A program made the translations under genes and the position numbers. The notes beneath the pieces were generated by a model, which worked only from the letters and a program-made list of their open reading frames with translations, made no database searches and had not been told where the DNA came from. From Escherichia phage vB_Eco_AMO_3701M, in sequence record PQ474795.1: DNA of 45,294 nucleotides. One strand, given 5' to 3'. Position 1 is the first letter of the stretch, and every line of letters starts with the position of its first letter. Of this stretch, positions 40,048-40,581 are shown piece after piece.

Positions 40048-40239
40048 ATGAAAAATTATGATGCGACTAAGTTTGACCAGGCGTTACTAATTAACAAGTT
40101 CTATGAAAGATACCCTTTGTCTGAGTTTAAAACAGATTCTGAAAGAGCCGAAGCACTTGGATATTTTATGGCTGGCGCCGAGTTGCAAAGGCTTGGAGAT
40201 TTCATAGTGTACCCTGACTTAGAAGACGATGAGGACTAA
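40048..40239 (+). CDS. small acidic protein
   Basis: 63 aa ending EDDED; GCAGGAG RBS. Confidence 0.55.
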   Translation: MKNYDATKFDQALLINKFYERYPLSEFKTDSERAEALGYFMAGAELQRLGDFIVYPDLEDDED

Positions 40240-40242
40240 GTT

Positions 40243-40434
40243 ATGAGAATTCGTATAACAGAGGTGAACAGTTTTCAACCCGCACACTATGGTGACCATC
40301 CCCTATACCATTTTGGCGTGGCCGTCGGGGATGAGTTTGAGGTTGTAGATGTGCATGGGTACGGGTTTATCGTCGAAACTGATGATGGACCGTTATTCAT
40401 TAGACGTGGTGAATGTGAAGTTCTGGAGGACTAA
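40243..40434 (+). CDS. small acidic protein
   Basis: 63 aa; junction GAGGACTAAGTTATGAGA repeated at the next gene start. Confidence 0.55.
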   Translation: MRIRITEVNSFQPAHYGDHPLYHFGVAVGDEFEVVDVHGYGFIVETDDGPLFIRRGECEVLED

Positions 40435-40437
40435 GTT

Positions 40438-40581
40438 ATGAGAGAAGCATTCGAACGGTGGGCTGTCGTCGAGGGTCTGCCGGTTAACAAAGGTTCAAAG
40501 AAAGAGTACCTGAACGTTAAGACGCGTCTAGCGTGGCGGGCGTGGAAAGCTGGTGTGCAAGCTGTGATGAATACGAGGTGA
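40438..40581 (+). CDS. hypothetical protein (47 aa)
   Basis: Same repeated junction/RBS as previous gene; below track cutoff. Confidence 0.45.
   Translation: MREAFERWAVVEGLPVNKGSKKEYLNVKTRLAWRAWKAGVQAVMNTR

Follow-up and report, generated by a model that had tools for sequence, protein, structure and literature searches.

Here, we examined three tandem small genes, orfA, orfB and orfC, in the 45,294-nucleotide (nt) sequence of Escherichia phage vB_Eco_AMO_3701M (PQ474795.1; this whole stretch is called the window below), which are separated by two identical copies of an 18-nt junction, J1 between orfA and orfB and J2 between orfB and orfC. Our analysis favors the view, to which we assign a probability of about 75%, that the repeat is the translational-coupling junction of orfC, duplicated by recombination within an array of small genes that undergoes cassette exchange. 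This view draws on the anatomy of the junction, on the combinations in which junctions and genes occur among related phages, on an insertion/deletion bounded by the repeat, and on the mosaic ancestry of the segments on either side.

An earlier reading of the window, made from the sequence alone (hereafter, the sequence-only reading), had placed two 63-amino-acid (aa) and one 47-aa open reading frames (ORFs) here, and all three are found where it put them (Table 1). It also correctly described both 63-aa products as acidic (isoelectric point (pI) 4.26 and net charge -8 for orfA, pI 4.54 and net charge -9 for orfB; the 47-aa product of orfC, never claimed to be acidic, is basic, with pI 10.6 and net charge +6), and the repeated junction that it reported is real, its coordinates being a few bases off. 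The region 39000-41200 is 100% identical to that of Escherichia phage M01 (OR061069.1, 45,294 bp, Guernseyvirinae), a Kagunavirus-like phage, and 98% identical to that of CR01, the sister phage of M01; about 160 Kagunavirus and Jerseyvirus genomes give patchy matches only. A megablast search of the region against complete E. coli chromosomes and plasmids returned zero matches, and an origin from a prophage island was dismissed on this ground.

Anatomy and ownership of the junction

Exactly two copies of the 18-mer GAGGACTAAGTTATGAGA are present in the window, at 40231-40248 (J1) and 40426-40443 (J2), with no further copy at up to 3 mismatches anywhere in it, and two copies were present in 0 of 100 dinucleotide shuffles. 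Identity between J1 and J2 ends abruptly at the edges of the 18-mer, which comprises the terminal Glu-Asp codons of the upstream gene (GAG GAC), its stop codon (TAA), a 3-nt spacer (GTT) and the Met-Arg codons of the next gene (ATG AGA). The GAGGA embedded in the final two codons of the upstream ORF is a Shine-Dalgarno sequence located 7 nt 5' of the ATG, and the terminal 6 nt, ATGAGA, are common to orfB (MRIRIT) and orfC (MREAFE). As a control for generic ribosome-binding-site likeness, the -12 to +6 contexts of all 102 annotated gene starts were compared pairwise (5,151 pairs): the mode was 6-7 matches out of 18, the next-best pairs reached 16 and 15, and 18/18 was attained by the J1-J2 pair only.

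Four consecutive junctions of the array follow a uniform grammar, a GGAG-type Shine-Dalgarno sequence in the last upstream codons, a stop, 3 nt and ATG, which can be written as GGAG...T[AG]AG[TA]TATG. Among them, the orf0/orfA junction shares with the 18-mer the 8-nt core AGTTATGA, and its 12-mer directly precedes orfC in one of the collected loci (L044). As in coupled gene pairs, the stop lies a few nt from the next start and the Shine-Dalgarno sequence is inside the upstream ORF; this anatomy suggests that translation is coupled across the junctions. A generic scan of 40048-40445 detected no promoter-like sites, and the 18-mer itself holds just the Shine-Dalgarno sequence, stop and start. 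The sole terminator-like match in the same interval, at 40364-40391, is within orfB, off both junction copies, and a single match is within chance expectation. J1 can be recoded synonymously, for example, as GAAGATTGA.

To which gene does the junction belong? Exact matches to the 18-mer in IMG/VR lie directly 5' of orfC in 10 of 11 cases, and the genes that precede these junctions are orfB alleles (C-terminus ...ECEVLED), orfA (...DLEDDED) and a third family (...QALSED). The eleventh match (L020) comes from an unrelated AT-rich phage, where the motif is located 3' of a terminator hairpin, and was taken as a chance occurrence. In a sample of loci anchored at the orfC start (47 loci, 42 of them unique, with 24 of the 47 from a single metagenome, 3300045988), eight upstream clusters adjoin orfC; one of these is a frame-shifted orfB allele (L017), so that at least seven families remain. 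Four unrelated families found 5' of orfC (orfB, orfA, f36 and f11) terminate in [GA]AGGACTAAGTT, and families on the junction block therefore all end with (E/K)D before the stop. Family f11 comes with two C-termini: members with the junction block have ...VKD, and those lacking the block have ...VKEKMG. Altogether, 25 of the 47 loci have GAGGACTAAGTT, or a version of it changed at one base, in front of orfC. The presence of the same block behind unrelated upstream genes and in front of orfC argues that the 12 nt before the ATG (GAGGA, TAA and GTT included) are the initiation region of orfC itself.

Conversely, the start of orfB is always ATGAGAAT[TC]CG, and it is found behind three different upstream sequences: ...TGAGGGAGGTTGCCGTTA in Bas71, HSE2 and four metagenomic loci; ...CGCGTTGTGGGGGCTGGT in fFiEco02, phiWAO78-1 and L021; and orfA followed by the junction in M01, CR01, Hrm2 and L AB-2017. 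The second of these precedes orf0 in M01 and orfC itself in L048, and, overall, two of the three lead into orf0 or orfC in other phages. Shared upstream sequences in front of different ORFs show that initiation regions and ORFs assort combinatorially, with the joints at the ATG.

The junction is also variable in relatives, with TGA in place of TAA, GAT in place of GAC, and TTT or GCT in place of GTT. The existence of such natural variants indicates that exact identity is functionally unnecessary, which favors identity by descent over convergence. K1G-type phages lack 10 nt of the junction (AGGACTAAGT), as observed in L006 (K1G), L013 (L AB-2017), L027, L032, L034, L038, L043, L046 and L052. 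In these phages, orfB ends with ...ECEVLV, and its TGA overlaps the ATG of orfC (ATGA); this deletion remodeled the junction and kept both genes. In a separate count of nine further K1G-type orfB loci, the block was lost through the 10-nt deletion in a third.

Origin of the repeat and competing explanations

Three relatives, phages fPoEco01 and Ivi and a metagenomic contig (L025), carry orfA, a single copy of the junction and orfC, and K1ind1 has the same arrangement with a variant junction. Alignments of these four sequences to M01 stop at 40248 and restart at 40425/40426, and the two alignment pieces overlap in the subject by its single 18-19-nt junction copy. As read from these alignments, the difference is a 195-bp insertion/deletion bounded by the direct repeat. 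The segments on the two sides have different nearest relatives. For orfA, the closest is fPoEco01 at 97%, the orfC-orfD segment of which is merely 74% identical (orfD being the gene 3' of orfC); for orfB, it is Hrm2 at about 89%; and for orfC-orfD, these are HSE2 and UTEC10 at 99%, although orfB of HSE2 is 45% identical at the protein level and UTEC10 has a different upstream gene. These affinities show the mosaic ancestry of the orfA, orfB and orfC-orfD segments. The sequence-only reading had offered duplication or cassette exchange as the source of the repeat; the repeat-bounded indel and the differing nearest relatives bear out exchange, and duplication finds no support, orfA and orfB being unrelated.

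We propose that the 18-mer is a translational-coupling junction that was turned into a direct repeat by recombination. Any upstream gene reads into the orfC block and gains from it its last two codons and stop. A crossover within the 6-8-nt microhomology ATGAGA/AGTTATGA could have joined a genome of the orfA-junction-orfC type to one of the orfB-junction-orfC type, setting the orfC initiation region in front of orfB and thus creating the repeat. The converse event, deletion between the two copies, would give rise to the orfA-junction-orfC arrangement of fPoEco01, Ivi and the metagenomic contig and is equally possible. The joint would then be one instance of an array-wide chain of short junction blocks, each comprising the last codons of a gene, a Shine-Dalgarno sequence and the first codons of its successor; recombination between related phages would swap, add or remove the intervening ORF bodies as cassettes in frame. 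The replication module of the window contains an Enc34-type single-stranded-DNA-binding protein (SSB) and fragments of a DUF2800 protein (31689-32315 and 32651-33404, minus strand). DUF2800 is presumably a PD-(D/E)XK-type nuclease family, and the two proteins are candidates for the recombination functions behind the mosaicism.

Several considerations weigh against this reading. A microhomology of 6-8 nt is very short for homologous recombination, and the repeat may instead go back to an illegitimate event; moreover, no donor phage with the orf0-orfA-junction-orfC order was found among the loci gathered. The conservation of gene ends could be due in part to dual coding (an unannotated 36-aa ORF overlaps the tail of the adjacent gene in slot z), to constraints on initiation or to a function of the terminal peptides, in which case the blocks need not be recombination substrates. 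Furthermore, the loci were picked through matches to orfA, orfB, orfC or the junction and are thus a non-random sample, and BLASTP is weak on bodies of 40-60 residues, so that some bodies scored as unrelated, in particular in slot y, may be highly diverged homologs.

The alternatives concern, first of all, the nature of the proteins involved. All three are encoded by real genes, as follows from the 147 homologs of orfA, with a strongly conserved core, from the allelic series of orfB together with its confident model, and from the 142 phage records of orfC. None of the three has a known family in Pfam, NCBIfam or PADLOC, the PHROG matches are to families of unknown function only, and a sequence-profile search of the PDB returned only noise (E >= 0.047). 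orfA is predicted to form a two-helix hairpin (residues 11-49; predicted local distance difference test (pLDDT) score above 90 in the core) followed by an acidic tail that is disordered (pLDDT of about 50); the core (residues 1-50) has a net charge of -1 and the tail, which varies among homologs, of -7. The gene is sporadic, being present in 36 phage records over several genera and in many enterobacterial prophages, where it constitutes the C-terminal domain of proteins of about 105 aa, and it occurs without orfB in lambdoid-like and Dhillonvirus-like phages and prophages. One homolog is the C-terminal part of gp38 of ES18, the gene for which lies in the 'ea' early region, with recombination genes on one side and xis on the other. 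The model of orfB is a five-stranded SH3-like barrel (pLDDT 92.4), which can be superimposed on SH3, SH3b and KOW domains, and a BFVD search with it matched uncharacterized phage proteins exclusively. Its 44 phage records make up an allelic series of uniform length in which identity falls from 100% to 39%; the alleles are homologous over the full length but far more conserved at the ends, and they occur mostly without orfA and always directly 5' of orfC. We regard orfA and orfB as accessory genes for, judging from the models, a helical hairpin with an acidic tail and an SH3-like barrel, respectively.

According to the sequence-only reading, these proteins would be anti-restriction or anti-CRISPR (Acr) factors that mimic DNA, and the repeat would then reflect the swapping of counter-defense genes, which is compatible with the junction mechanism proposed here. 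Both proteins are small and acidic, only 5 of the 60 coding sequences (CDS) of up to 100 aa in the genome having a net charge per residue of -0.12 or lower, and their acidity is conserved across both families. The genes are sporadic and accessory, in a hypervariable array that follows a putative sigma-70-like promoter, the wide divergence of orfB alleles at constant length suggests fast evolution, and the ES18 homolog of orfA resides in a non-essential early region. However, nearly all the charge of orfA is in the disordered variable tail rather than on a structured DNA-like surface, and the invariant residues of orfB are mostly glycine and hydrophobic, D47 being the only invariant acidic one, so that no conserved acidic array is formed. 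No Acr homology was detected in PDB, Pfam or NCBIfam, there is no adjacent aca-type helix-turn-helix (HTH) regulator (downstream are orfC, which has no HTH model match, and the DUF551 protein), and neither predicted fold resembles a known inhibitor. In addition, the BASEL Kagunavirus and Skatevirus isolates, some of which carry homologs, are reported to be sensitive to restriction-modification (RM) (PMC11990801); Bas71 and Bas74 have orfB alleles of about 50% identity, and Bas79 has an orfA homolog of 85%. The sensitivity of these carriers leaves room for activity against other systems or by the alleles present here. Taken together, an anti-defense role for orfA and/or orfB appears unlikely, and DNA mimicry as its mechanism less likely still, so that the label of anti-defense DNA mimic is removed from the two hypothetical proteins as unsupported. 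A literature search covering CM001 and phage breeding gave no relevant data on the function of small genes in Kagunavirus.

A second alternative is that J1 and J2 share no ancestry and were driven to identity by selection alone, the exact 18-mer being an optimal termination-reinitiation signal. All array junctions indeed obey one grammar, and A-rich second codons and a Shine-Dalgarno spacing of 7 nt favor initiation. Yet relatives tolerate variant junctions and, in the K1G type, the loss of 10 nt, and other pairs of starts in the genome do not exceed 16/18. The chance occurrence of the 18-mer in the AT-rich phage is close to the rate that we estimate for a database this large, which argues that the motif is not generally selected, and an indel with repeats at its ends and a change of nearest relative across each copy are signatures of recombination rather than convergence. 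We consider such convergence improbable. Duplication of a single ancestral gene in tandem, with the copies diverging until their kinship could no longer be recognized, could account for the equal ORF lengths (192 nt) and the repeat spacing of 195 nt, but orfA and orfB yield no BLASTP alignment at E <= 100 and show 33% in-register DNA identity, are modeled as an alpha-hairpin and a beta-barrel, fall into separate PHROGs and are distributed independently; this origin is thus extremely unlikely, the equal length of the two genes being a coincidence. Equally slim are the chances of an assembly artifact in a low-quality record, despite the many frame-shifted genes, a slot-z gene broken relative to CR01 and 3,204 positions at which the window disagrees with the database copy of M01, because orfA, orfB and orfC are intact, with proteins 100% identical to those of CR01, and the orfA-orfB-orfC arrangement recurs in the independent records of CR01 and, with diverged junction copies, of Hrm2 and ORH_001 (the latter two from another laboratory).

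The array around the junction

The junction is part of a rightward small-gene array (39094-40785) that is flanked by leftward replication genes on one side and by lysis and packaging genes on the other. In a coverage profile of 22 relatives aligned to M01 38938-41638, short islands (38991-39079, 39312-39355, 39470-39530, 39717-39778, 40409-40619, 40790-40922 and 41138-41283) are retained in about 17-22 of the 22, whereas the bodies between them are covered in few: 3 for the first gene, 1 for slot y, 0 for orf0, 6 for orfA, 4 for orfB and 1 for gene E. The ends of high-scoring segment pairs (HSPs) cluster at 39079, 39778, 40248, 40922 and 41220. As in boundary sequences, the blocks flank non-homologous DNA, one boundary joins unrelated genes, and an indel is bounded by a repeat. 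The individual features are listed in Table 1.

Table 1. Features of the small-gene array, its junctions and associated signals (window positions).
Feature	Position	Strand	Basis or remark
P1, promoter-like element (TTGCAC, 17-nt spacer, TACTAT), putative operon start	39030..39062	+	island in 22/22 relatives
First array gene, 72 aa, phrog_7673, variable body	39094..39312	+	nucleotide match in 3/22 relatives
Junction block, first gene/slot-y gene	39312..39355	+	top HSP start 39312 (14 loci); covered in ~15-17/22 vs 1-3 for flanking bodies
Slot-y gene, 61 aa, conserved ends MFKKGQLV... / ...LIGNNFKFKGAK, variable middle	39331..39516	+	trimmed-body BLASTP
Junction block: slot-z tail (F)TTASNHDARADDSEGGCRE, Shine-Dalgarno GAGGGAGG, start of 36-aa ORF	39717..39778	+	covered in 19-22/22
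Unannotated 36-aa ORF MMLVPTTLREVAVNNYPFILIVSAVYAVHALWGLVW, hydrophobic helix, putatively coding	39737..39847	+	ORF list; full region kept in 8/22
orf0, 67 aa from ATG 39841 or 71 aa from GTG 39829, phrog_926, variable cassette	39841..40044	+	PHROG
orf0/orfA junction AGGAGTTGAGTT ATGAAA (Shine-Dalgarno, TGA stop, GTT, ATG)	40036..40053	+	sequence
orfA, 63-aa acidic protein, phrog_27229	40048..40239	+	ORF, PHROG, structure model, homologs
J1: last 2 codons and stop of orfA (GAGGAC TAA), spacer (GTT), first 2 codons of orfB (ATG AGA)	40231..40248	+	
orfB, 63-aa acidic predicted SH3-like beta-barrel, phrog_10916, conserved ends MRIRIT... / ...SECEVLED	40243..40434	+	ORF, PHROG, model, alleles
Conserved 3' end of orfB with J2 (40426-40443, putative translation-initiation region of orfC)	40409..40443	+	HSPs of relatives start at 40409 (8 loci) or 40426 (5 loci)
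orfC, 47-aa basic protein, phrog_15836, conserved anchor gene	40438..40581	+	142 phage records; covered in 22/22 relatives
orfD, 66-aa acidic DUF551 protein	40585..40785	+	Pfam PF04448, 49.2 bits vs cut-off 22, profile 1-68 of 68
Three stem-loops 3' of orfD (40788-40810, 40820-40839, 40854-40873)	40788..40873	+	fold -42 kcal/mol, z = -3.5; 20-21/22 relatives
P2, promoter-like element, second copy of P1, putative start of next unit	41158..41190	+	repeat search
Other promoter-like copies	4508-4540, 6258-6290, 16026-16058	-	inside structural-gene region

The pattern of shared ends and unrelated middles extends over the array. When the shared ends are removed, 15 unique slot-y bodies fall into five BLASTP clusters, and six unrelated slot-z bodies carry the same C-terminal tail, TASNHDARADDSEGGCRE (loci L002-L025). 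In Bas71-type phages, orfB starts directly 3' of the block at 39717-39778. The first 14 codons of the 36-aa ORF overlap the slot-z tail in another frame, and its end overlaps the start of orf0; a family search with this ORF gave zero matches. The body of orf0 is matched at the nucleotide level in 0 of the 22 relatives, and the sequence upstream of it (...GTGGGGG[CT]TGGT) leads to orfB in fFiEco02-type phages and to orfC in L048. Such sharing of ends calls for caution in annotation: phrog_30617 matches four slot-z proteins, three of them over the last 15-19 residues only, and terminal stretches of this kind can falsely link unrelated small phage proteins. Indeed, single-linkage protein clustering with the ends kept merged unrelated ORFs through terminal peptides and out-of-frame ORFs and was redone on trimmed sequences. 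The GenBank CDS 39857-39985 seems to have been called in an incorrect frame, the phrog_926 match (E = 1.7e-30) being to the ORF 39829/39841-40044.

From these comparisons, the array can be viewed as a series of exchangeable cassettes set between conserved linkers, of which the repeated junction of orfA, orfB and orfC is the shortest. A possible, if tentative, extension is that the Kagunavirus operon is a dedicated array for linker-guided cassette exchange, in which blocks of 18-90 bp are preferred recombination substrates and in-frame bodies are often swapped in co-infection; the terminal peptides might be functional, and the cassettes (the orfB series and orfA) might be host-interaction or counter-defense factors. 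If so, the array would be a translational counterpart of the promoter-early stem-loops (PeSLs) of phage T4, with a tractable test in E. coli of recombination at boundary sequences versus illegitimate recombination combined with selection.

Downstream of the repeat, the joint between orfC and orfD is GAGGTGAGAT ATG. In two IMG/VR loci (L022 and L025), orfC does not end with ...VMNTR but extends beyond residue 41 as a series of GVTGG pentapeptide repeats, which may represent a repeat-mediated change at this joint. DUF551, the domain of orfD, is portable, being found, e.g., as the C-terminal domain of an Ea22 variant of Stx phages and in YfdS (PMC10834534). Both orfA and orfD seem to be present in the array as stand-alone forms of domains that elsewhere belong to longer fusion proteins.

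The genes at 39094-40785 are separated by gaps of 0-18 nt or overlap wherever they are intact, and the array fits a single polycistronic, translationally coupled unit of about 39.03-40.9 kb, as suggested by its layout. The P1 region is a 75% repeat of 41158-41205, and the element YTTGCRCAC-N9-ATAG-NN-TACTATTCA is present in five copies in the window versus 0 expected. Its putative promoter function at P1 and P2 would entail early, sigma-70-dependent transcription of the array, and the three leftward copies are placed as if driving moron-like units. The generic promoter and terminator scan gave counts that did not exceed those in shuffled sequences, and it missed this five-copy element, which was later found by the repeat search. 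The stem-loop block 3' of orfD is a possible end of the operon, with a putative terminator role and weak T-tracts; an Rfam scan of 38300-41400 at E <= 1 returned zero matches.

The window and the database copy of M01 are equal in length and differ by 3,204 substitutions and 0 indels, with 0 differences within 38875-41211. Relatives resemble the database copy more than the window in some regions, and 29000-32000 of the window is 90.6% identical to another Kagunavirus versus 83.6% to M01. Core genes are fragmented in both the record and the window (26000-38200 and elsewhere), with DNA polymerase I split into six CDS and the helicase, terminase and capsid genes also affected, and the slot-z gene, from the ATG at 39516 (MEELIC...), is disrupted by 1-2-nt indels relative to CR01 (39516-39780). 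The split genes suggest either an indel-rich assembly or real pseudogenes.

Relation to known mosaic systems

One close precedent is the boundary-sequence model developed for lambdoid phages and mycobacteriophages; for example, gp68 of Island3 shares 18 C-terminal residues with the upstream gene, a duplicated boundary flanking an insertion (PMC3029335). The junctions described here resemble mosaic boundary sequences in that they are short, are located at gene boundaries, flank non-homologous DNA and adjoin different genes. They differ from the usual case in being identifiable at nearly every junction of one operon and in including coding ends, so that unrelated proteins share terminal peptides; the shortest, of 18 nt, amounts to little more than a ribosome-binding site, a stop and a start.

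The nearest analog in mechanism is the PeSL cassette, which mediates the shuffling of modules in hyperplastic regions of T4-type phages (PMC2839356, PMC4122927). Small ORFs in these regions are inserted, deleted or replaced in units delimited by PeSL motifs, and an ORF flanked by two nearby copies is expected to be lost when these recombine (PMC2839356). The junction is likewise a short regulatory motif repeated among non-essential small ORFs, where it bounds indels and replacements. However, a PeSL is intergenic and consists of a sigma-70-like promoter and a terminator stem-loop, whereas the junction is translational, overlaps coding sequence and has neither promoter nor hairpin. By analogy, then, the junction would work like a PeSL but is not one. 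Its stop 3 nt from the ATG, the Shine-Dalgarno sequence in the upstream codons and the 7-nt spacing are those of termination-reinitiation pairs; unlike in the usual coupled pairs, the putative coupling element is portable between unrelated genes.

The products of orfA and orfB share with T7 Ocr, ArdA and small acidic Acr proteins their small size, low pI and accessory position, and differ from Ocr and ArdA in lacking sequence or fold similarity, in the location of the orfA charge in a disordered tail and in the RM sensitivity of phages with homologs. In its gene content, the array recalls the lambdoid 'ea / exo-xis' region, as exemplified by the orfA family member gp38 of ES18 and by the portable DUF551 domain, although M01 is a virulent member of Guernseyvirinae and the domains are free-standing mini-proteins.

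We found no papers on this architecture in Guernseyvirinae in a limited literature library. The phenomenon itself, short boundary sequences between the mosaic modules of phages, is known, and the array is an unusually legible example of it. The joints of phage mosaics are usually invisible, whereas here the boundary sequences can be read directly, in a 12-18-nt block on four unrelated genes, one gene behind three initiation regions, an indel exact to the repeat and shared terminal peptides. Given that Kagunavirus phages infect derivatives of E. coli K-12 and are represented in the BASEL collection, the frequency of recombination at such joints is directly measurable. The main value of the array is thus as a tractable test case for boundary-sequence recombination.

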